A stretch of 64,000 bases of DNA, taken from sequence record MT446423.1. One strand, written 5' to 3'. The translations under genes and the position numbers were made by a program. The notes below the pieces were generated by a model, which saw only the letters and a list, made by a program, of their open reading frames with translations, was not told the DNA's origin and searched no databases. Shown here one piece after another: positions 42,757 through 53,436 of this stretch. This DNA is from Escherichia virus TH58. How positions within the stretch are numbered: the first letter of the stretch is position 1; every line of letters starts with the position of its first letter.

Positions 42757-42872
42757 ACTATATGAAGAGAACACTCTTCTAAGCGGTAGCCTACAACTGA
42801 GAGACTTGTCGAAAGAAGGTGAAATTCAGACGAACGTGGCTACTAAATATTATCTCGAATTGAGAATTTAAA

Positions 42873-43121
42873 ATGATTAAACAATTACAACACGCTCTCG
42901 AACTGCAACGCAACGCATGGAATAACGGTCATGAAAACTACGGTGCATCTATTGATGTTGAAGCCGAAGCTCTTGAAATCTTACAGTATTTCAAACATCT
43001 GAATCCAGCACAAGCCGATCTTCGCGATATCCTGGTCCAGAAAGATGAATTGAAATATGCTAAGCCTCTGGCTTCTGCAGCACGTAAAGCAGTTCGTCAT
43101 TTTGTTATTACCCTGAAGTAA
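42873..43121 (+). CDS. rIII: lysis-inhibition accessory protein RIII
   Basis: 82 aa, same as T4 RIII; position between 31 and 30.x genes. Confidence 0.8.
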   Translation: MIKQLQHALELQRNAWNNGHENYGASIDVEAEALEILQYFKHLNPAQADLRDILVQKDELKYAKPLASAARKAVRHFVITLK

Positions 43122-43148
43122 GTTAAATCGAGGAGCCGTCGAACTGTT

Positions 43149-43177
43149 TGATTAATGATTTGCGAATCATTATAGTT
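43149..43177 (+). promoter_or_regulatory. sigma70-like promoter TTGATT-N17-TATAGT with palindrome AATGATT-tgcg-AATCATT in spacer
   Basis: Read directly; lies in unusually long 264-bp non-coding stretch. Confidence 0.4.
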
Positions 43178-43385
43178 TTAAGACCTCAACAGTTTTACGG
43201 TGTACCTCTTGAATGTATTTTGTACTATCACGCGTCAGAAAAAGGTTATCTGTCTAAGTCGTGGTCGGTATGATGACGGGTTTATGGTTATCCTGTCGTT
43301 AAATATCCAAAAACCTATGTTCCCCTCGAGGGCTTGCGCAGGCAATGTCAATAAGTCCTGCATTTTCATTTAAAGAGAATTTATA

Positions 43386-43565
43386 ATGGCAAAACAAGCT
43401 AAAGCAAAGAAAGCAGTTGAAAAGAAAGTTGATGGTACCTCTAAACGCGCTGGATACAAGCGTGGGTCGAACTCTCGTATTAATCAAACAGTTGAGAAGA
43501 TCATGCGCAGAGCACGTGCAGTTCTTCGAGATGATGCTTCTCGTTTTGGAAAGGTTGTTGCATAA
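43386..43565 (+). CDS. small basic protein, 59 aa (MAKQAKAKKAVEKKVDGTSKRAGYKRGS...)
   Basis: Not in ORF track; ends 5 nt before a strong terminator; preferred over track ORF 43417-43602, which reads through that terminator. Confidence 0.45.
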   Translation: MAKQAKAKKAVEKKVDGTSKRAGYKRGSNSRINQTVEKIMRRARAVLRDDASRFGKVVA

Positions 43566-43570
43566 TTTTA

Positions 43571-43593
43571 GGGAGACCGAAGTCTCCCTTTTG
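43571..43593 (+). terminator. rho-independent terminator (GGGAGACCGAAGTCTCCC + TTTT)
   Basis: Perfect 7-bp stem and T-run. Confidence 0.7.
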
Positions 43594-43625
43594 TGCGTTT
43601 AGGGCAGAAAAAGTTTAAAAAAGAT

Positions 43626-43654
43626 GTTTACTCTCCTGTAGGATGTGTTACTAT
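43626..43654 (+). promoter_or_regulatory. T4 early-type promoter
   Basis: GTTTAC 43626-43631, TGt-TACTAT 43646-43654. Confidence 0.5.
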
Positions 43655-43695
43655 AGACTTGTACCACCTAATCAATAAAACAATCGGAGAATAAA

Positions 43696-44064
43696 ATGAA
43701 AATCAATCTGAACTCATACATCAAATGTAAAGACCACGATGGTTATAAAGCTATCGAAATTAAAGAATTCCAGTGGATGTTATACAAAGAGCAATTTGAG
43801 TTCGTAGGTTGTATGACACCTGAAGGTCCTTCAGATGATTTCTCTTGGAAAATTGTGTTAGCAAACTTTTTCACAGGTGACACATACGAATTAAAAACTA
43901 TTATTACCGGTAAAATTCGTTCAGAAACATATGTTGACGAAGAAACTGGTTACTCTGAAGATGTTACATGGTATCAAAATGGACGCATTACAGCAGATAA
44001 CCTGATCGAAAAAATGAAAGCCAAAGGTGTTTTAAATTTAGACAATTGGATTAAAGTTGCATAA
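43696..44064 (+). CDS. hypothetical protein (122 aa)
   Basis: ORF track; RBS GGAGAA. Confidence 0.6.
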   Translation: MKINLNSYIKCKDHDGYKAIEIKEFQWMLYKEQFEFVGCMTPEGPSDDFSWKIVLANFFTGDTYELKTIITGKIRSETYVDEETGYSEDVTWYQNGRITADNLIEKMKAKGVLNLDNWIKVA

Positions 44065-44068
44065 AACA

Positions 44069-44108
44069 GTTTACTTTGGTACAGGTTATGTTATTATAGA
44101 CCTGTACC
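44069..44108 (+). promoter_or_regulatory. early-type promoter; -10 region bracketed by 8-bp inverted repeat GGTACAGG / CCTGTACC
   Basis: GTTTAC 44069-44074, TATTAT 44092-44097, inverted repeat 44078-44085 / 44101-44108. Confidence 0.45.
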
Positions 44109-44138
44109 AACAAACAACTTAAACATCTGGAGAATAAA

Positions 44139-44504
44139 ATGAACTACACCAACTTCGAACGTAAATATGTTTCTAACGGTATCGCTGGTTCTATTGATAC
44201 GATTTGTTTATGGAAACATAAAAATGGTTCAGTATGTGAAATTGAGCAGTATATGACTCCTAATTACGTTTATATGCGATTTGAAAATGGCATCACGGTT
44301 TCAGTCACAATGGAAGGTTCCAACTTCAAAATTGCATTAGATGACGATTTCCGTCAACGTGATTTAGGTACTCATCCTTGCTGGAACGGTGTTAATCGTA
44401 AACTTCTGGTTAAAACTTGGATTCGTCATATCCTGAGTAACCGAGCTAAACCTGAACATCTCGAAGCAATCTTTGATGTAGTTCTTAACGAATTCGATAT
44501 CTAA
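44139..44504 (+). CDS. hypothetical protein (121 aa)
   Basis: ORF track; RBS GGAGAA. Confidence 0.6.
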   Translation: MNYTNFERKYVSNGIAGSIDTICLWKHKNGSVCEIEQYMTPNYVYMRFENGITVSVTMEGSNFKIALDDDFRQRDLGTHPCWNGVNRKLLVKTWIRHILSNRAKPEHLEAIFDVVLNEFDI

Positions 44505-44510
44505 TTTAAC

Positions 44511-44528
44511 TGGGAGCCGAAGCTCCCA
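44511..44528 (+). other. RNA hairpin TGGGAGCCGAAGCTCCCA without U-tract
   Basis: Perfect 7-bp stem with 4-nt loop, followed by GAGGAAATT-ATG of next gene rather than a T-run. Confidence 0.4.
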
Positions 44529-44539
44529 GTGAGGAAATT

Positions 44540-45154
44540 ATGTTTAAAGTTAATACTTTTTATAAAATGAATTTTAAAAATGGGGATATTACTCCACGCC
44601 TTAAAAACATGTTCTCATATGACCTTATTGAGCCTTTTGAAGTTTTAGAAGTTACTGATGCCGGCTCGGTTTGTGAAATTAGAACTTCTGAAGGTAAAAT
44701 TTATCAGGCAGGTGTTGGTAAATTTAGTAATTGTTTTACTTTAATATTCTCGACCGATTTAGATGAGCATTTTATTGAATGTCCTAACCCTAAGGTCTAC
44801 GAAGTTCCACATCAAGAAACTAAGAAAAACGGCCCGCACGAATATACGAAGGTTGAAACTCCTCACGGCGTGATGTGGCGTCATAACTCTCCTTTTGGAA
44901 GTAAAGGAACATTTGCTCAACCATCTAAACCGTATGACGATGAAAAATACATCGTCGTCTTTTTATCTGAACAGGGTACTCAAGACCGTGGATGCCAACG
45001 AAGTGGTTTACTAAGTGAACTTGAAGCTCATAACCAAGCACGTGAATTCGTTGAGAAAAATCCTGGTTCTGAAGCTCTAGTCATGAAAGCAATTACTCAA
45101 TATATCACTGCTCAACCTGTTGTTCATCCGGTAGAAATTAATTTCGTTAAGTAG
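44540..45154 (+). CDS. hypothetical protein (204 aa)
   Basis: ORF track. Confidence 0.6.
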   Translation: MFKVNTFYKMNFKNGDITPRLKNMFSYDLIEPFEVLEVTDAGSVCEIRTSEGKIYQAGVGKFSNCFTLIFSTDLDEHFIECPNPKVYEVPHQETKKNGPHEYTKVETPHGVMWRHNSPFGSKGTFAQPSKPYDDEKYIVVFLSEQGTQDRGCQRSGLLSELEAHNQAREFVEKNPGSEALVMKAITQYITAQPVVHPVEINFVK

Positions 45155-45183
45155 TTTACATCCAAGGACGGATTAGAGTATAA
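45153..45183 (+). promoter_or_regulatory. possible early promoter (GTTTAC ... TATAAT, 19-nt spacer)
   Basis: GTTTAC 45153-45158, TATAAT 45178-45183; spacing non-optimal. Confidence 0.3.
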
Positions 45184-45207
45184 TGATTTCTTTAGTAAGT
45201 GGAAAAT

Positions 45208-45405
45208 ATGAAATTTTTAATAGCACAAACAGTCCAATTAAAAGGTGTTGGAATCCCTGGGATGATTTTTAAAGTTCTCCATGAATTTAAAACCGCTGCT
45301 GGAATTATCAATGAAGCGTATGCTGTTCAATGGGTTGATGGGACTTCTGACATACGTATGGGTAAAGAGTTATCTCCTATTAAAGGGTTGAAACATGTTG
45401 AATAA
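45208..45405 (+). CDS. hypothetical protein (65 aa)
   Basis: Track ORF 45199-45405 begins at GTG; trimmed to ATG 45208. Confidence 0.45.
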   Translation: MKFLIAQTVQLKGVGIPGMIFKVLHEFKTAAGIINEAYAVQWVDGTSDIRMGKELSPIKGLKHVE

Positions 45406-45607
45406 ATTAATCCAGAAATTTTTTGGTACGGAAATGATTGAAGTTACGTATCGTGTGACTGATGTAAGCCCGTGGGCCCGAAAAGTTGAACCATATACTA
45501 AAACAATTAAAATGCTGAAATATGACGGTGGATTATCTATCAAAGACCGTCTACCGGCTTATGGACATTGGGCTGATGTTGAAATTATAAGTGTTAAAGA
45601 TGTCTGA
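45395..45607 (+). CDS. hypothetical protein (70 aa)
   Basis: ORF track. Confidence 0.5.
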   Translation: MLNKLIQKFFGTEMIEVTYRVTDVSPWARKVEPYTKTIKMLKYDGGLSIKDRLPAYGHWADVEIISVKDV

Positions 45608-46058
45608 GTTAGAGATTAGAAGCAATTTTAGATGGCCGTCATGTGCATTAAGTAACTTTGCTCAATGGCCTTTTGTTATGGATGGTATTCAATTCGGAGG
45701 TCTTGAAGGATTTCTCCAAGGATGTAAGGTGAAAAATGTTGAACAACAAAAACGTATATTTGGGTTGTCTGGATTGGCTGCACAGCAAGCTGGAAGGTCT
45801 TATGCAAGAGCTCAGGACCGTGGGACTCTCTTCTGGTTAGGAGTTCCATTTTCAAGATACTCCGAAGCGTGGAAAGAATTATACACAAATGCATATTTTG
45901 AAGCCGCGATCCAAAATAAGGGGTTTCGTGATGCCTTACAAGCCTCTAAAGGAAAAATTTTGAAGCACAGCATGGCCAGCCATCTAACAAAAGATGATAC
46001 AATATTAACCGAAGCCGAATTTATTGATGTGTTAAACCTATTAAGAGACTCTTTATGA
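45600..46058 (+). CDS. NADAR / YbiA-like domain protein
   Basis: Track ORF 45591-46058 (GTG) trimmed to ATG 45600; SNFAQWPFVMDGIQF resembles E. coli YbiA core SNFAAWPIKVDGKTW. Confidence 0.55.
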   Translation: MSELEIRSNFRWPSCALSNFAQWPFVMDGIQFGGLEGFLQGCKVKNVEQQKRIFGLSGLAAQQAGRSYARAQDRGTLFWLGVPFSRYSEAWKELYTNAYFEAAIQNKGFRDALQASKGKILKHSMASHLTKDDTILTEAEFIDVLNLLRDSL

Positions 46059-46879
46059 AACCTACTATTTTGACTGATATTGATGGTGTATGTTTAAGCT
46101 GGCAATCTGGACTTCCTTATTTTGCCCAAAAATATAATCTTCCATTAGAACATATTTTAAAAATGATTCAGGACGAAAAATTTATTTCTCCTGGTAAACT
46201 ATTCAATACCGATGATAACCTTGGTAAACAATTAATAGAAAAATATAATAGCTCTGATTTTATTCGTTACTTAGCGCCTTATTCAGATGCTCTTCGAGTT
46301 ATCAATAAACTAAAAGAAGACTATAATTTTGTAGCCGTGACGGCGCTAGGTGATTCAATTGATGCTCGATTGAATAGACAATTTAATTTGAATGCTTTGT
46401 TCCCAGGCGCCTTTTCTGAAGTAATGATGTGTGGACATGATTCTTCAAAGGAACAATTATTCGAACTAGCTAAAACAAAATATAACGTGATTTGTTACGT
46501 TGACGATTTAGCTCATCACTGTGACCATGCAGCAGAAATTCTTAATGTACCGATTTATTGGTTGGCTCGTGGTGAACGTGATGATATTCCTCGCGCTGCA
46601 CAACGTGTACACACGTGGGATGATATTGAATCTCGTTTGGTTCCACCAGAGCATAATTCAGATTCAGATCGTGAAGACCTTTTAAAACGATTGGCGGATT
46701 TGCTTAAAGAATCTGGTGCAACAAGTCCAGGTGCATGGCCTAATCAAATTGGTGGCCCCTCGACAACACGTACTCCATATACCTGGCGAACCCCAGGACC
46801 AACTGATATGCAGCCGTGGTGGACGATTCAAAACTTTCCTTTAGATTCGTCTAAATGGACTTGGTCTATAAATTGTTAA
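46055..46879 (+). CDS. HAD-superfamily hydrolase-like protein with atypical Pro/Trp/Thr-rich C-terminal tail
   Basis: 274 aa; HAD motif I ILTDIDGV at N-terminus; C-terminal 60 aa low-complexity. Confidence 0.5.
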   Translation: MKPTILTDIDGVCLSWQSGLPYFAQKYNLPLEHILKMIQDEKFISPGKLFNTDDNLGKQLIEKYNSSDFIRYLAPYSDALRVINKLKEDYNFVAVTALGDSIDARLNRQFNLNALFPGAFSEVMMCGHDSSKEQLFELAKTKYNVICYVDDLAHHCDHAAEILNVPIYWLARGERDDIPRAAQRVHTWDDIESRLVPPEHNSDSDREDLLKRLADLLKESGATSPGAWPNQIGGPSTTRTPYTWRTPGPTDMQPWWTIQNFPLDSSKWTWSINC

Positions 46880-46888
46880 GGGTTAATT

Positions 46889-47158
46889 ATGTTTGTAGTT
46901 CATGATATTACAGATGGCAAAAACACCACACGTGACTACGGTCACGTTAACATGTTCTTTCGAGACTGGCCATTGTTTCGTTCAGTAAAAGACGCAGAAA
47001 TATTTAAAGAGTGTGTTGAACAAGGGTTCATCTACATTTCAGAATACTATGTTGAAGGACTCGGTAAATGGATTACCACTTATCAGAAAACGCTGAAATC
47101 GCTTCTAGATGAAGTGGCTTATAATAGAACCGTAACCAAAATCGAGGACATCAAATGA
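46889..47158 (+). CDS. hypothetical protein (89 aa)
   Basis: ORF track. Confidence 0.55.
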   Translation: MFVVHDITDGKNTTRDYGHVNMFFRDWPLFRSVKDAEIFKECVEQGFIYISEYYVEGLGKWITTYQKTLKSLLDEVAYNRTVTKIEDIK

Positions 47159-48648
47159 TTTTAGATATTTTAAACCAAATAGCTGCGATCGGTTCTACTA
47201 AAACAAAACAAGAAATCCTTAAGAAAAATAAGGACAACAAATTACTTGAACGTGTGTTTCGTTTAACATATGCACGTGGTATCCAGTATTATATTAAGAA
47301 ATGGCCAGGACCGGGTGAAAGGTCTCAAGCATATGGTCTTCTTGAATTAGATGACATGTTGGATTTTATTGAGTTCACATTAGCCACTCGTAAACTCACT
47401 GGTAATGCTGCAATTAAAGAGCTCATGGGTTATATCGCTGACGGTAAACCTGATGATGTAGAAGTCCTTCGTCGTGTAATGATGCGCGACCTTGAAGTAG
47501 GTGCTTCAGTGTCTATCGCGAATAAGGTGTGGCCTGGACTTATTCAATTGCAACCGCAGATGTTAGCATCTGCATATGATGAGAAATTGATTACTAAAAA
47601 TATTAAATGGCCCGCATTTGCCCAATTAAAAGCAGATGGTGCTCGTTGTTTCGCTGAAGTTCGCGATGATGGCGTTCAATTCTTTTCTCGTGCCGGTAAC
47701 GAATACCATGGTCTTACTCTATTAGCAGATGAACTAATGGAAATGACTAAAGAAGCTCGTGAAAGACACCATAATGGGGTTTTAATCGACGGTGAATTAG
47801 TTTATCATTCATTCGATATTAAAAAGGCTGTGAGCTCAGGAAATGACCTGTCGTTCTTATTTGGTGATAATGAAGAATCCGAAGAAGTACAAGTTGCAGA
47901 CCGTAGCACTTCAAATGGTTTAGCAAATAAATCTCTTCAAGGGACTATTTCTCCTAAAGAAGCGGAAGGTATGGTTCTTCAAGCCTGGGACTATGTTCCT
48001 TTAGATGAAGTCTATTCTGATGGCAAAATTAAAGGTCAGAAATACGATGTTCGTTTTGCTGCTCTTGAAAATATGGCTGAATGCTTTAAGCGAATTGAGC
48101 CAATTGAAAATCAGTTAGTTCGTAATCTTGATGAAGCTAAATTGGTTTATAAGAAATATGTTGACCAAGGTCTTGAAGGTATTATCCTTAAAAACCGTGA
48201 TTCATATTGGGAAAACAAACGCTCTAAGAACCTAATTAAATTTAAAGAAGTTATTGATATCGCTTTAGAAGTTGTAGGATACTATGAACACTCTAAAGAC
48301 CCTAACAAATTAGGTGGTGTCGAACTCGTATCACGTTGTCGTCGTATTACAACCGATTGTGGTTCAGGGTTTAAAGATACAACTCATAAAACAGTTGACG
48401 GTGTAAAGGTTCTTATTCCTTTAGACGAACGTCATGATTTGGACCGTGAACGATTAATGTCCGAAGCTCGTGAAGGTAAATTAATTGGACGTATCGCTGA
48501 TTGTGAATGTAATGGTTGGGTTCATTCTAAAGGCCGTGAAGGTACTGTAGGTATTTTCCTTCCAATTATTAAAGGGTTCCGTTTTGATAAAACAGAAGCG
48601 GATTCATTTGAAGACGTATTTGGACCGTGGTCCCAGACAGGTTTATAA
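47155..48648 (+). CDS. 30: ATP-dependent DNA ligase
   Basis: 497 aa; adenylation motif KADGAR and motifs matching recalled T4 ligase (LATRKLTGNAA, GLEGIILKN). Confidence 0.93.
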   Translation: MILDILNQIAAIGSTKTKQEILKKNKDNKLLERVFRLTYARGIQYYIKKWPGPGERSQAYGLLELDDMLDFIEFTLATRKLTGNAAIKELMGYIADGKPDDVEVLRRVMMRDLEVGASVSIANKVWPGLIQLQPQMLASAYDEKLITKNIKWPAFAQLKADGARCFAEVRDDGVQFFSRAGNEYHGLTLLADELMEMTKEARERHHNGVLIDGELVYHSFDIKKAVSSGNDLSFLFGDNEESEEVQVADRSTSNGLANKSLQGTISPKEAEGMVLQAWDYVPLDEVYSDGKIKGQKYDVRFAALENMAECFKRIEPIENQLVRNLDEAKLVYKKYVDQGLEGIILKNRDSYWENKRSKNLIKFKEVIDIALEVVGYYEHSKDPNKLGGVELVSRCRRITTDCGSGFKDTTHKTVDGVKVLIPLDERHDLDRERLMSEAREGKLIGRIADCECNGWVHSKGREGTVGIFLPIIKGFRFDKTEADSFEDVFGPWSQTGL

Positions 48649-48836
48649 TGAAAGCTTATTTAGAAACAGTTATTGTAGCTAAGAAGGAAGGTGGAGATGT
48701 TTCCACCTCTTGTTCCCAAATTGTATTAGATTTTCCTAATAACGATTCCTATAATATTTTTATGGACAATTTTGATAAGTACGAAAAAGGCCCTAATTTT
48801 GAAGTTTATCGTACTTTGCTCCTGATTGTGGATTAA
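48648..48836 (+). CDS. hypothetical protein (62 aa)
   Basis: Track ORF 48627-48836 trimmed to ATG 48648, which overlaps ligase stop (TAATG). Confidence 0.45.
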   Translation: MKAYLETVIVAKKEGGDVSTSCSQIVLDFPNNDSYNIFMDNFDKYEKGPNFEVYRTLLLIVD

Positions 48837-48856
48837 GAGCCTTCGGGCTCTTTTTG
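48837..48856 (+). terminator. rho-independent terminator (AGAGCCTTCGGGCTCT + T-run)
   Basis: Perfect stem with UUCG loop, TTTTT. Confidence 0.65.
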
Positions 48857-48891
48857 GCATAAATATAAATTATTACTAAAAGGAAAACACT

Positions 48892-50979
48892 ATGTCTGAA
48901 CAATTAAATGAAGTGTTTGAATCTGAAGGCAGTCTTCCTGTCGTCAATTTGAACCCTAAAGCTAAAGTTCCACAAGTCTGGAAAATTGGTGATATCGATA
49001 CAAACATCGTAGTTCGTTTATTCTCTTACCTTTCCGAAGGCGATGCTGTAAAACAAGTTAAACTTGGTGACAAATACGCTCATGTCGTTATTATGAGTCT
49101 TTCTGAAAAGGGTAATCTCGCTGAATTGAAAAATGGCCTTGGTCCTGCTCCTATTGATGCAATCAACACCATTTTCAATACGGTATATGAACAGGTTAAA
49201 GCTCTTCGTATGGATGCAGTTCTGTTCCGATTCCCTACCAAGAAATTGAAAGGACGTGGACAACAACTTCAAACTCTTCTTGCTCGTTTAGTTTCTACTA
49301 AAACCGGTGGTCGTTTTAAAGTATTGTCTGCAATGTATCAATTCACAGGTAAACACACATATGTGATGATGGTTCGTAAAAATGCCGACATTGAAGATAT
49401 TAAAGGCATCCCTAACATTAACACAGAGTTGTACACGAAAGTAGATTCTGATGTTGGTGAAGTTTATGTGAGTAAAAAGACTGGCGAAAAAGTCACCAAA
49501 GAAATGGCTATCGCTGGTTCTATTGCTGCTGTAGAAGAAAAACGTAAAGATAAGCCTGTTATTGCTCGTACTAAAATTTCTCGTCGCGCTATTGCAGCAA
49601 GTCAATCTTTAGAAGCTGACCGCCAAGAAGGTGAGCTATTCCAGAAATACGAAAATTCTGCTAAAGAAGTTAGTGGCCCAGCTACAGCTGAATTACTTCC
49701 TGAAGCATATGAAATCGTACTAGCCCAAGCATCGTCCACAGCAAAAGGCACTTTAGTTGCTGATATCGAAAATAAGATTTATAATCGTATTGATGAATCC
49801 TTTAGATTTGCTGATGAAGTTTCTTATGGCAGTGTTATTAAGCCAACTTTAGAAAAGTTTGCTAAGAAAATTAAAACTGAAAAAACAACATCTGTTAAAG
49901 CATTAGCTGCTTTTGTTGAAGCTGCAAACGAAATTGCAGACTCTATTAAAGACGAATGGTTTGAAGATTTTAGACGAGATAATTTCCAACTGGCTGACGA
50001 CGTTTTAGCTGAAGTATCTGAAAAAACTTGGAAACAACGTAAATCAGCGTTCTTGTCTAATGTGATGTATACTTATGCACGAGAATCGGCTAGAGGCACC
50101 TTTAATATAACAATGAATCGGGACCCTAAACAATACTCTGTTGCTGAAAAACGAGCTATTCGTGAATATGCCTCTTCTGCGTATACCGATATCAATAATA
50201 TGTTGTTAGGCCGTTATAAACCGGATTTTTACGATGTTGCAGATGAAGATGAAGTTAAACGCGCTATCGATGGTCTTGATTCGGCGTTTTTAAATGGAGA
50301 CCGTTTACCTGAAGGACTAACGTTATATAGAGCTCAGTCTATCAGAATGCCTATTTACGAAGCAATGGTTAAAAATAAGGTATTCTACTTCAGAAACTAT
50401 GTTTCCACTTCACTAGCTCCTATTATTTTCGGTGGGTTTAAAGAGAACGTTGCCCTTGGACTTGCTCCTGAAGAAGTTCGCAAAGAGCTTAACATTGACA
50501 ATAATGACGAAGGTGTTACTATTTCTCCTAGTCAAGTAAGAACAGCTATGCATGCACCAGAACAAATCCGTGTTAACGTTGGATGGGCTATTGATGGCGC
50601 CCATAAAGTTAACGTGATTTATCCTGGACAGTTGAGTAATCACCCTAATGAGCAAGAAATTATTTTGCCTAGAGGCATTCTCTTGCAGATAAATAAAATT
50701 ACGGATGCGTCATCTGACACTGGTGCAGGTTTAGAATCCAACCTTAAATTTATTCAAGCTGAAGTCATGTCCTCAGACCAGTTGGACGAAGCTGTCATTT
50801 ACGATGGTGATGTTCTCATGGAAACAGGCGAGGTTGTTGCTATGACTGGTGAAATCGAATCGGATGAGCCGGTATCGTTCTCTTCATTTGTAGAAAAAAC
50901 TAGTGCTCCTAAAGGATTGAAATTGTTAGCATCTTTAATGGATTTAGAATCAGTTCCGTTTAAATTTGTCCAAGGATAG
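48892..50979 (+). CDS. alt: ADP-ribosyltransferase Alt (virion-packaged, modifies host RNA polymerase)
   Basis: 695 aa; ART catalytic triad context R (YTYARESARG), STS (YVSTSL), ExE (EQEIIL); position next to ligase as in T4. Confidence 0.9.
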   Translation: MSEQLNEVFESEGSLPVVNLNPKAKVPQVWKIGDIDTNIVVRLFSYLSEGDAVKQVKLGDKYAHVVIMSLSEKGNLAELKNGLGPAPIDAINTIFNTVYEQVKALRMDAVLFRFPTKKLKGRGQQLQTLLARLVSTKTGGRFKVLSAMYQFTGKHTYVMMVRKNADIEDIKGIPNINTELYTKVDSDVGEVYVSKKTGEKVTKEMAIAGSIAAVEEKRKDKPVIARTKISRRAIAASQSLEADRQEGELFQKYENSAKEVSGPATAELLPEAYEIVLAQASSTAKGTLVADIENKIYNRIDESFRFADEVSYGSVIKPTLEKFAKKIKTEKTTSVKALAAFVEAANEIADSIKDEWFEDFRRDNFQLADDVLAEVSEKTWKQRKSAFLSNVMYTYARESARGTFNITMNRDPKQYSVAEKRAIREYASSAYTDINNMLLGRYKPDFYDVADEDEVKRAIDGLDSAFLNGDRLPEGLTLYRAQSIRMPIYEAMVKNKVFYFRNYVSTSLAPIIFGGFKENVALGLAPEEVRKELNIDNNDEGVTISPSQVRTAMHAPEQIRVNVGWAIDGAHKVNVIYPGQLSNHPNEQEIILPRGILLQINKITDASSDTGAGLESNLKFIQAEVMSSDQLDEAVIYDGDVLMETGEVVAMTGEIESDEPVSFSSFVEKTSAPKGLKLLASLMDLESVPFKFVQG

Positions 50980-51008
50980 TTTACAAACACATGGATGTGT
51001 GATACTAT
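50979..51008 (+). promoter_or_regulatory. T4 early-type promoter
   Basis: GTTTAC 50979-50984, TGa-TACTAT 51000-51008. Confidence 0.45.
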
Positions 51009-51037
51009 CATCCCATCAACAACATGAGGAAAACGTT

Positions 51038-51331
51038 ATGAAATCTATGCTTCGCTTTAATGGTCAAGAACTAGTAGTTGAAGATGCTATCCCAGCGGAT
51101 GATGTTTTTAACGAAGCTGTGATTGACGAATTGAATCGAGTATTCCCAGGTGCATTCCATATTGCTATGGAACCTCTTAAAAACTTTCGTGACCCTGAGC
51201 ACACTGATCAAATTTTTGTCGGTGTAGTGACAGGTCATTTAGAAACAGAGGTACCAATGGTCGTATTAGTTAAATACTCTAAAGATGATACTCCATTCCG
51301 AGCACCAGCATTCCTTTCATTCCGTAAATAA
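51038..51331 (+). CDS. hypothetical protein (97 aa)
   Basis: Track ORF 50966-51331 trimmed to ATG 51038 with GAGGAAA RBS. Confidence 0.5.
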   Translation: MKSMLRFNGQELVVEDAIPADDVFNEAVIDELNRVFPGAFHIAMEPLKNFRDPEHTDQIFVGVVTGHLETEVPMVVLVKYSKDDTPFRAPAFLSFRK

Positions 51332-51340
51332 ACCCCTAAA

Positions 51341-51364
51341 GGGAGACAACGTCTCCCTTTTTTC
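51341..51364 (+). terminator. rho-independent terminator (GGGAGACAACGTCTCCC + T7)
   Basis: Perfect stem, TTTTTTT; sits between convergent genes. Confidence 0.65.
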
Positions 51365-52327
51365 TTATAGACCTAAAACTCTTGATGTAGAATTCACCAT
51401 ACCTGTCATTGTGTTTATATTAGACACACCTCCAGCGGTCCCACCTAATCTAGAAAGTCTTGATACTGCACTTCCTAGCCCAGAATCATTCTGATTATTC
51501 CCAAACATTCCTGAAACACTACTAATAAGTCCTGATTCCAGCCATTCTAAAGCAGCCTGTCTATTTACAGCACCTGATTGCATAACGCGATAAGCAAATG
51601 TTACATCAAAAACTGTTATCTGATTATCACCATCATACGTTAACTCAGGAGAAGAGACACTAACAGGAATACATCCTGTGAACATGACAGCGGTATGTGG
51701 TAAACCATTTCGTGCATGTAAATTAACCTGAATATCTGCTTCGACGTCTTGTGGTAAAGCACGAAGACCTGTTACAGGGTCTTGGACCGAGTTTACCCAG
51801 TCTTGCATTGCTCTAAAGTTAGATGCTTCGGAATCCATTCTAAAGCTTATTACTAACGGGTCCATTTCACGACCGGTAATTCGGATATTCGGGGAGTTAT
51901 AGTTGAAATCCGTTTCATAAGATAATCGGTTCTCAGGCATTTTTACAGAATAAATCATTAAACCCGTATTATTATATGCCATATTGAAGAAGTCTATCAG
52001 ATAAGTTCCTACTGTGAACTCACCTAACAAGCTTTGTACCGTACGTTGACTCATTGCTCCAATCAGATATTTACTTGCACCCGATTTTCGAATTAATTTC
52101 TGTGTTCCTGCTGTAATCAAGGTTGTTACGCCCTGATTGATATCACCTTGAGACAATCCTAGCCAATCTGAATCCAACCCTAAGTTATTATAAGCAAAAC
52201 TACCAATTGACGAAATTAGTGAAGACGATTTGGTTGATGGTGTAGTAGCAAATACACAACTAAACATATTGTTTCGTTGGAAATCTGCATTTATAGCTTG
52301 GTTATTAAATTCTTCTAAAGAGTACAT
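51365..52327 (-). CDS. 54: baseplate tail-tube initiator gp54
   Basis: 320 aa as T4 gp54; N-terminus MYSLEEFNNQAINADFQRNNMF. Confidence 0.9.
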   Translation of the reverse strand: MYSLEEFNNQAINADFQRNNMFSCVFATTPSTKSSSLISSIGSFAYNNLGLDSDWLGLSQGDINQGVTTLITAGTQKLIRKSGASKYLIGAMSQRTVQSLLGEFTVGTYLIDFFNMAYNNTGLMIYSVKMPENRLSYETDFNYNSPNIRITGREMDPLVISFRMDSEASNFRAMQDWVNSVQDPVTGLRALPQDVEADIQVNLHARNGLPHTAVMFTGCIPVSVSSPELTYDGDNQITVFDVTFAYRVMQSGAVNRQAALEWLESGLISSVSGMFGNNQNDSGLGSAVSRLSRLGGTAGGVSNINTMTGMVNSTSRVLGL

Positions 52328-53436
52328 TAGAAAGTCCCCGCATAAAGTGAAGAACGGTTTAATGTAATAATTTCTCGCATTGTTATCTCTAACGTAAATG
52401 TTGACGGTAAGTTAGGAGCAACAGCAAGACCATTAAATTGTCCATTTGGAGTTTTATCAAAACGTACGCTTTGAATTTGGCATGGGCCAAATACGTCAGT
52501 TAATCCATCAAATTTAGACGTATAACCAAAGTTTTTAACCATCCAAATTGTAGGGTTGCTTACAACTAATACGTTTGTTAATGACGCAGTAATCTTTTCA
52601 AACAATGTCTTATTTTTTACTGCATCATCCGGCGTCATAGGCTCAATAAACGTTGAACGGTACCATTCGTCTAAATAACTTTTAATCTCTTGGGCGTACT
52701 GTGATTTACCGGTCTCACCATATGAGAAATAGTTAAAATACTGGTAAATGTTTATAATAGCCATAAGGTCTTCAGTTGAACGTGGAGTTAAATCCCATGT
52801 AAAGACTTTAGTACGGTTCTCAGCACCGCCATACATACTACGAGAAGTCGTATAAATCTGTTCGTTATTATCAGCCATAAGCCCTTGAGTAATAGAATCT
52901 AATGCACCAAAAACTGCAGTAGAAGCAATGTTACTTAAAACACCTGTAGCAGTACCTCCACCTTTAGTAATAAGGCTATCACCGATATCATTAAAACGAT
53001 GTGAAGTTGTATCAACGTCAGATTTGGAACGTGGCAAAAGTATATTAGCAACAGGAGTTTTATTTATAGTAGGTTTATTAGCTCCGGCAGGAAGCAACCC
53101 ATTAGAGAATTTAGTCACTGCATCTTTCACATTATCAGTTAAATCTGATATGATACCGTTAGATGAAGTGCCGGCATATGCAGGACGTAAATTCCTGAGG
53201 GATCCTGAATCGCGTGCAGACATATTGTACGCGGTAAATAATAATCCGTTCTTATAAAGGTCTGTTACCTGGAAGTCTCCTGTGGAGTCATTTCCGGCCG
53301 CTCTTCCTGTAGGAAATTGAGCAACATAAGTTTTAGTAGTTGTTTCGGTTTTAGTGCTTTGCCCGGCACTTTCTGAGACTGGGATTGCTTTATTTAAATC
53401 CTTTGCATCTACTACTATTTCTTTTACACTAATCAT
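52327..53436 (-). CDS. 48: baseplate tail-tube cap gp48
   Basis: 369 aa; position and length as T4 gp48. Confidence 0.9.
   Translation of the reverse strand: MISVKEIVVDAKDLNKAIPVSESAGQSTKTETTTKTYVAQFPTGRAAGNDSTGDFQVTDLYKNGLLFTAYNMSARDSGSLRNLRPAYAGTSSNGIISDLTDNVKDAVTKFSNGLLPAGANKPTINKTPVANILLPRSKSDVDTTSHRFNDIGDSLITKGGGTATGVLSNIASTAVFGALDSITQGLMADNNEQIYTTSRSMYGGAENRTKVFTWDLTPRSTEDLMAIINIYQYFNYFSYGETGKSQYAQEIKSYLDEWYRSTFIEPMTPDDAVKNKTLFEKITASLTNVLVVSNPTIWMVKNFGYTSKFDGLTDVFGPCQIQSVRFDKTPNGQFNGLAVAPNLPSTFTLEITMREIITLNRSSLYAGTF

Follow-up and report, generated by a model that had tools for sequence, protein, structure and literature searches.

Gene product 30.3 of bacteriophage T4 was characterized and renamed AdfN (anti-DarT factor NADAR) by Johannesman et al. 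(Nat Commun 2025; PMC11825919). In that work, recombinants between RB69, which is sensitive to DarTG1, and T2 or T4, which are resistant, mapped the resistance to the 3' end of 30.3; the RB69 allele, in which a frameshift deletes the final 15 residues, is inactive and leaves the phage DarTG1-sensitive. Deletion of adfN made T4 sensitive to DarTG1, adfN supplied to RB69 rescued that phage, and the substitutions E36A and K43A in T4 AdfN impaired counter-defence and rescue. The purified T4 protein strips ADP-ribose from DarT1-modified DNA in vitro, an activity that is abolished by E36A; it does not bind DarT1, and it does not act on the thymine modification made by DarT2 (PMC11825919). Hydrolysis of guanosine-ADPr (G-ADPr) in vitro by the T4 NADAR has been reported independently (PMC11125620; PMC12945103), and the T4 enzyme is also active on ADP-ribosyl-guanine in RNA, as cited in PMC12945103. 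In uninfected E. coli, T4 AdfN fails to neutralize DarT1, and it rescues non-T-even phages weakly (PMC11825919; PMC11125620); from these two observations the authors deduced that a T-even cofactor is involved (PMC11825919). Proteomic analysis of T4 has shown that gp30.3 accumulates late although its RNA is early (PMC9697503).

The NADAR clades are defined by a residue on the last strand of the fold, which is Glu in YbiA, Asp in the DarT1-linked proteins (DarG1), and His in phage gp30.3 (PMC11543638; PMC11125620). E. coli YbiA (PDB 2B3W; PF08719/DUF1768) is a housekeeping N-glycosidase that acts on riboflavin intermediates and is encoded in a LexA-controlled operon. The DarG1 antitoxins (BC4488 family, e.g., the Geobacter lovleyi NADAR, PDB 8BAT) are encoded adjacent to DarT1 and carry an N-terminal beta1-beta2-alpha1 extension that is thought to bind ssDNA; T4 AdfN cannot replace DarG1 in uninfected cells. 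Two further phage-borne orphan NADARs, AdfN(Bas32) and AdfN(Bas60) of T5-like and Vequintavirinae phages, reverse the guanine ADP-ribosylation made by DarT1 and allow phages to escape DarTG1. Both come from other NADAR clades (archaeal-like; bacterial non-YbiA), were independently acquired, and, unlike T4 AdfN, work in uninfected cells without a T-even cofactor.

Here we describe a gene of Escherichia virus TH58 (MT446423.1) that lies in a stretch of 64,000 nucleotides, the whole of which is referred to as the window.

Results

The coding sequence and the protein features on which the analysis rests are as follows:

45600..46058, + strand: adfN (T4 gene 30.3 ortholog), complete CDS of 152 aa for a predicted NADAR-superfamily ADP-ribosyl-guanine glycohydrolase
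45651..45695, + strand: N-terminal NADAR core motif SNFAQWPFVMDGIQF, residues 18-32, read from the sequence and aligned to YbiA FSNFAAWPIKVDGKTW
45705..45728, + strand: catalytic E-x6-K segment, Glu36 (GAA, 45705-45707) to Lys43 (AAG, 45726-45728), from conservation, the YbiA alignment, and the T4 mutants
45966..45968, + strand: clade-defining His123 (codon CAC) on the last beta-strand, invariant in 65 homologs; the model places its last strand at residues 120-123
46011..46052, + strand: C-terminal alpha-helix, residues 138-151, predicted in the model with high confidence and intact in the full 152 aa

The gene predicted at this position was confirmed as a complete CDS that starts with the ATG at 45600 and ends with the TGA at 46056-46058. 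The ORF listing reaches further 5', to a GTG at 45591; we took the ATG as the start because T4 annotates the equivalent ATG and because the resulting 459 nt equal the length of T4 gene 30.3. Alignment with T4 gp30.3 (AF158101) is gap-free over equal lengths of 152 aa, with 147 of the 152 residues identical (97%). The five substitutions relative to T4 (R51K, P89E, V120I, I125M, and G128H) are conservative or surface-type, and none of them hits a column that is invariant or at least 90% conserved. At the codon level, 32 synonymous differences stand against 5 nonsynonymous ones, indicating purifying selection on adfN. The C-terminal helix that is absent from the frameshifted RB69 allele is intact, and E36, K43, and H123 are common to the T4 and window proteins. 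PF08010 (Phage_30_3, 'Bacteriophage protein GP30.3') matches over its entire length (model 1-138 of 138) with 232.5 bits against a gathering cutoff of 36 (E 1.6e-69), and phrog_652 is also matched.

The surroundings are those of T4. Searching the neighbouring genes against the T4 locus by tblastn, together with the T4 annotation, revealed that the order 30.5-30.4-30.3-30.2-30.1-30(ligase)-alt.1-alt is reproduced, and Escherichia phages TH12 and 55 match 45000-47200 at 97.5% identity. The phage of the window is a T4-like Tequatrovirus. The flanking genes are shared with T4, yet their products are far less alike than AdfN, with amino acid identities of 47% for 30.4, 69% for 30.2, 58% for 30.1, 63% for ligase, and 41% for Alt.

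When used as a single sequence, the window AdfN had no match to PF08719 (NADAR/DUF1768) even at E ≤ 1, none in the PDB by phmmer even at E ≤ 10, and none in NCBIfam, and thus its placement in the superfamily depends on the fold and on comparisons made with a profile or at the level of the family. A profile built from 66 homologs reached YbiA (2b3w) at E 0.0045 with both the SNFA...DG motif and the E-x6-K pair aligned, and 24 of the 66 family members matched PF08719 individually (best 1.5e-7). In the fold search, 131 residues of PDB 8bat (219 residues) aligned with the AdfN model, which has an alpha-helical core and two small flanking beta-sheets and can be superposed on solved NADARs. The T4 sequence was left out of the homolog alignment behind the conservation figures and the structural model.

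Within the 65-homolog alignment, the conserved core motif begins at residue 13; S18, N19, F20, and F25 are invariant, and D28 and G29 are at least 90% conserved. The original prediction had compared the motif with a YbiA string, SNFAAWPIKVDGKTW. This string is genuine: it is present in PDB chain 2b3w_A, where it aligns to the motif with 8 of 15 positions identical. The motif alone would be weak evidence, and it is the profile and the fold that lead us to regard the likeness as true homology rather than chance. Among the same 65 homologs, E36 never varies, and conservation of K43 is at least 90%. The pair lines up with the corresponding E and K in SEHYFQAQKF of YbiA, and its members are seven residues apart, as are E43 and K50 of PnNADAR.

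The prediction of a NADAR/YbiA-like protein was therefore correct, with the family profile, the per-member Pfam matches, and the fold search in agreement and the catalytic residues conserved. However, because the invariant His123 stands where YbiA has its last-strand catalytic Glu, AdfN is not a strict YbiA-family member and is 'YbiA-like' in fold only; the housekeeping role and operon setting of YbiA are likewise unlike those of the window protein. Within the NADAR superfamily, AdfN falls in the gp30.3 phage clade. Nor is it a DarG1, since it has no adjacent DarT gene, lacks the N-terminal extension (the 152-aa protein is the core only), and has His123 rather than Asp at the last-strand site. 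Its immediate neighbours are homologs of 30.4 (phrog_2042) and 30.2 (phrog_420, with a weak HAD match), and no DarT gene lies beside it. It is an orphan, as are AdfN(Bas32) and AdfN(Bas60).

Three further features describe how adfN is joined to its neighbours:

45600..45607, + strand: 8-nt overlap ATGTCTGA between the adfN start and the stop of the 30.4 homolog (45395-45607), from ORF coordinates
46055..46058, + strand: ATGA in which the adfN stop overlaps the first codon of the 30.2 homolog (46055-46879; HAD-like, weak match), from ORF coordinates
45155..45184, + strand: sigma-70-like promoter candidate TTTACA-18 nt-TATAAT, 11/12, the best-scoring site, within the 44-nt intergenic gap before the 30.5 homolog

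The identical 8-nt overlap is found in T4, where 30.4 ends at 128758 and 30.3 starts at 128765, and the 4-nt overlap of 30.3 with 30.2 is present there as well; we infer that adfN is translationally coupled with 30.4 and 30.2. The promoter candidate could drive early 30.5-30.4-adfN-30.2 transcription. It is a candidate only, because the number of sigma-70-like sites in the region (35 versus 28.4 +/- 5.3 expected by chance) is not above chance. Beyond alt, an intrinsic-terminator-like hairpin at 51338-51360 (+), with a 10-bp stem followed by a T-run, lies between the ORF after alt (50966-51331) and a convergent minus-strand homolog of baseplate gene 54 (51365-52327).

At the nucleotide level, adfN stands out as an island of conservation, with 90% identity to T4 compared to 58% for 30.4 and 66% for 30.2. 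Identity leaps from ~57% to ~92% at the 30.4/30.3 junction, and a level of ~90% is held over the first ~120 nt of 30.2; for this comparison the island was taken as 45577-46176 and its flanks as 45100-45576 and 46177-46879. Either strong purifying selection or a mosaic boundary left by recombination could produce this pattern. Inside 30.3, T4 annotates an ORF in an alternative frame (30.3', 75 aa), whereas in the window equivalent at 45736-45963 (+) codon 35 is a TAG stop (45838-45840), which suggests that 30.3' is not a conserved protein-coding gene. The minus-strand ORFs of 46, 72, and 53 aa within adfN were set aside because they lie wholly inside a CDS under purifying selection. Farther upstream, a 204-aa ORF at 44540-45154 (+; phrog_17531) sits where T4 has gene 30.6. 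It has no Pfam and no NCBIfam match, and a blastn comparison of this segment with T4 was likewise negative; in this part of the early region the gene has been replaced in a lineage-specific manner.

By tblastn, a gp30.3 NADAR was detected in 1510 phage records. An Acinetobacter Lazarusvirus keeps the order 30.3-30.2-ligase, with alt adjoining but on the opposite strand. More distant homologs have other surroundings. In Aeromonas phage 31 (locus L003, 8001-8450) and Ralstonia phage RSP15 (L005, 7995-8513), the gene lies within a tRNA gene cluster rather than by ligase and alt. A gp30.3-type NADAR that is 38% identical is present in the 308-kb jumbo-phage-like metagenomic ENA contig NODE_6 (L006, 6001-6468; also L007 and L008), and a related jumbo-phage-like contig of 424 kb is listed among the gp30.3 homologs. 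In these contigs the NADAR gene has NUDIX and Thg1-like genes, but no alt, in its vicinity. In Vibrio D479, a macrodomain was suspected in the 'phosphatase' encoded two genes downstream of the NADAR, but the idea was dropped, as it had no Pfam match at E ≤ 0.01.

In the window, Alt (PF03496 ADP-ribosyltransferase, E 6e-28) is encoded at 48892-50979 on the + strand. The distance of about 3 kb from the NADAR gene to alt given in the original prediction was accurate, with 2834 nt separating the adfN stop from alt, while its placement of both genes in the same early island was half right. In T4 dual-omics data, 30.3 is classed as early at the RNA level and late at the protein level, and 30.4 and 30.5 as early (PMC9697503, supplement); that study cites alt to illustrate late genes, the Alt product being packaged in the virion (PMC9697503). 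Thus, the early assignment holds for the RNA of T4 30.3 and fails for alt. An exact match to the T4 late promoter TATAAATA was not found ahead of alt within 42757-53060, and the count of this motif in the whole window is not above chance.

The Alt alleles are deeply diverged, with several present among otherwise close Tequatroviruses. The window Alt is at least 99% identical to the Alt of 90 phage records, e.g., E. coli O157 typing phage 3 and Shigella phage Shf125875. Identity of at least 95% is seen in 148 records, and 1062 records fall below 60%; for AdfN, 597 database records are at least 95% identical to the window protein.

Discussion

We conclude that the ORF is, very probably, the ortholog of T4 gene 30.3, now adfN, and that it encodes a minimal, core-only N-glycosidase of the NADAR fold that reverses DarT1 damage. 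The orthology, the fold, the intact catalytic residues, and the intact C-terminal helix are established by the present analysis. We have high confidence that 45600-46058 is a functional adfN, the activity of this allele being predicted from that of the 97%-identical T4 protein. One of the two functions offered in the original prediction, a counter-measure to host ADP-ribosylating toxins, has been demonstrated experimentally for T4 AdfN against DarT1 (PMC11825919; PMC11125620).

In the proposed mechanism, the host DarT1 toxin, part of the DarTG1 toxin-antitoxin defence, would ADP-ribosylate guanines in phage DNA and block replication. AdfN would hydrolyse the ADP-ribose-guanine bond and so restore the template, acting as an orphan, phage-borne counterpart of the DarG1 antitoxin through enzymatic repair rather than toxin binding. 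By analogy with solved NADARs, Glu36 and His123 would contact the distal ribose and Lys43 the diphosphate. The window allele would be expected to behave like T4 AdfN and to be transcribed early with 30.5 and 30.4. The late build-up of gp30.3 protein in T4 sits oddly with a role in protecting replicating DNA, and the cofactor dependence of T4 AdfN leaves room for additional or different natural substrates.

Three other readings have to be weighed against repair of DarT1-modified DNA. The original prediction also raised the idea that the gene and alt form an ADP-ribose write and erase pair. In this case the NADAR would remove ADP-ribose that phage Alt (or ModA/ModB) puts on host proteins, limiting or timing the modification, and adfN and alt would be kept together for that purpose. 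The two genes are indeed on the same strand and 2.8 kb apart, their order is kept in T4 and also in an Acinetobacter Lazarusvirus, though alt is inverted there, and their co-location had previously been noted by Iyer et al. The arginine-ADP-ribose bond is also N-glycosidic, so that chemistry alone would permit the reaction. Both genes are widespread in T4-like phages, with counts of 598 and 593 in Escherichia, 83 and 83 in Shigella, and 69 and 69 in Acinetobacter phages; however, equal counts are expected for any two genes that are common in such phages. The synteny is of T4 type only: Aeromonas phage 31, Vibrio D479, and Ralstonia RSP15 have no alt within +/-8 kb of the NADAR gene, and a jumbo-phage contig has none within 6 kb. 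Nor is co-occurrence strict. Compared as record counts, the 1510 records with gp30.3 stand against 1222 with any Alt-like match, a figure that comprises 1832 places and may include Alt-related transferases such as ModA/ModB. At least 288 phage records thus have the NADAR but no Alt-like ART detectable by tblastn, and the imbalance is seen in Vibrio phages (55 NADAR versus fewer than 16 Alt-like) and Klebsiella phages (272 versus 163). The 97% and 41% identities of AdfN and Alt to their T4 counterparts indicate uncoupled histories, T4 alt is late and its product virion-packaged while 30.3 RNA is early, and DarT1 fully explains the phenotype of the adfN deletion. Furthermore, the T4 enzyme is reported to act on guanine-ADPr in DNA and RNA, and arginine-ADP-ribosylated proteins are not among its reported substrates (PMC11825919; PMC11125620; PMC12945103). 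Taken from co-location, the pairing with Alt is unsupported, and we consider it very unlikely.

We regard it as similarly improbable, to a high degree, that the main natural substrate is something other than DarT1-modified DNA, such as soluble ADPr-derived immune signals, by-products of RNA repair, or RNA ADP-ribosylated by other host toxins. Phage NADARs have been proposed to target mainly soluble ADPr derivatives (Iyer et al. 2022), and the proximity of gp30.3-type genes to NUDIX and Thg1 genes in jumbo-phage contigs, their position in the tRNA clusters of Aeromonas phage 31 and RSP15, and the failure of T4 AdfN to rescue E. coli from DarT1 outside infection would all be in keeping with this. 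[quoted passage not shown] Scavenging of soluble or RNA-borne ADPr could also exist alongside repair of DarT1-modified DNA instead of in its place. Unlikely, too, is a tie, through a T-even cofactor or a second substrate, between AdfN and either the phage ADP-ribosylation machinery or the translationally coupled neighbour. The HAD-like gp30.2 might potentiate or localize AdfN, or AdfN might clear collateral nucleic-acid ADP-ribosylation or RNAylation by Alt or ModB. If such a tie existed, the conservation island, which takes in adfN together with ~120 nt at the start of 30.2, would represent a co-selected unit. Among the phages compared, gp30.2 is found beside the NADAR in Tevenvirinae (T4) and an Acinetobacter Lazarusvirus only, and BLASTP and phmmer found no 30.2 homolog beside the NADAR of Aeromonas phage 31, Vibrio D479, Ralstonia RSP15, or the jumbo-phage contigs. 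Because the adjacency is absent in these distant phages, comparative genomics neither supports nor excludes gp30.2 as a partner of AdfN.

As a repair enzyme for DarT1-modified DNA, the window protein is a real but ordinary finding, its function having already been published for the 97%-identical T4 ortholog. Record annotation lags behind the characterization of 2024-2025: in most of the matched phage GenBank records the gene is still a 'hypothetical protein', and it is called 'DprA-like DNA recombination-mediator protein' in one Acinetobacter phage record. The practical value here lies in the correct annotation, adfN / NADAR DNA ADP-ribosylglycohydrolase, which predicts that the phage of the window is resistant to DarTG1.
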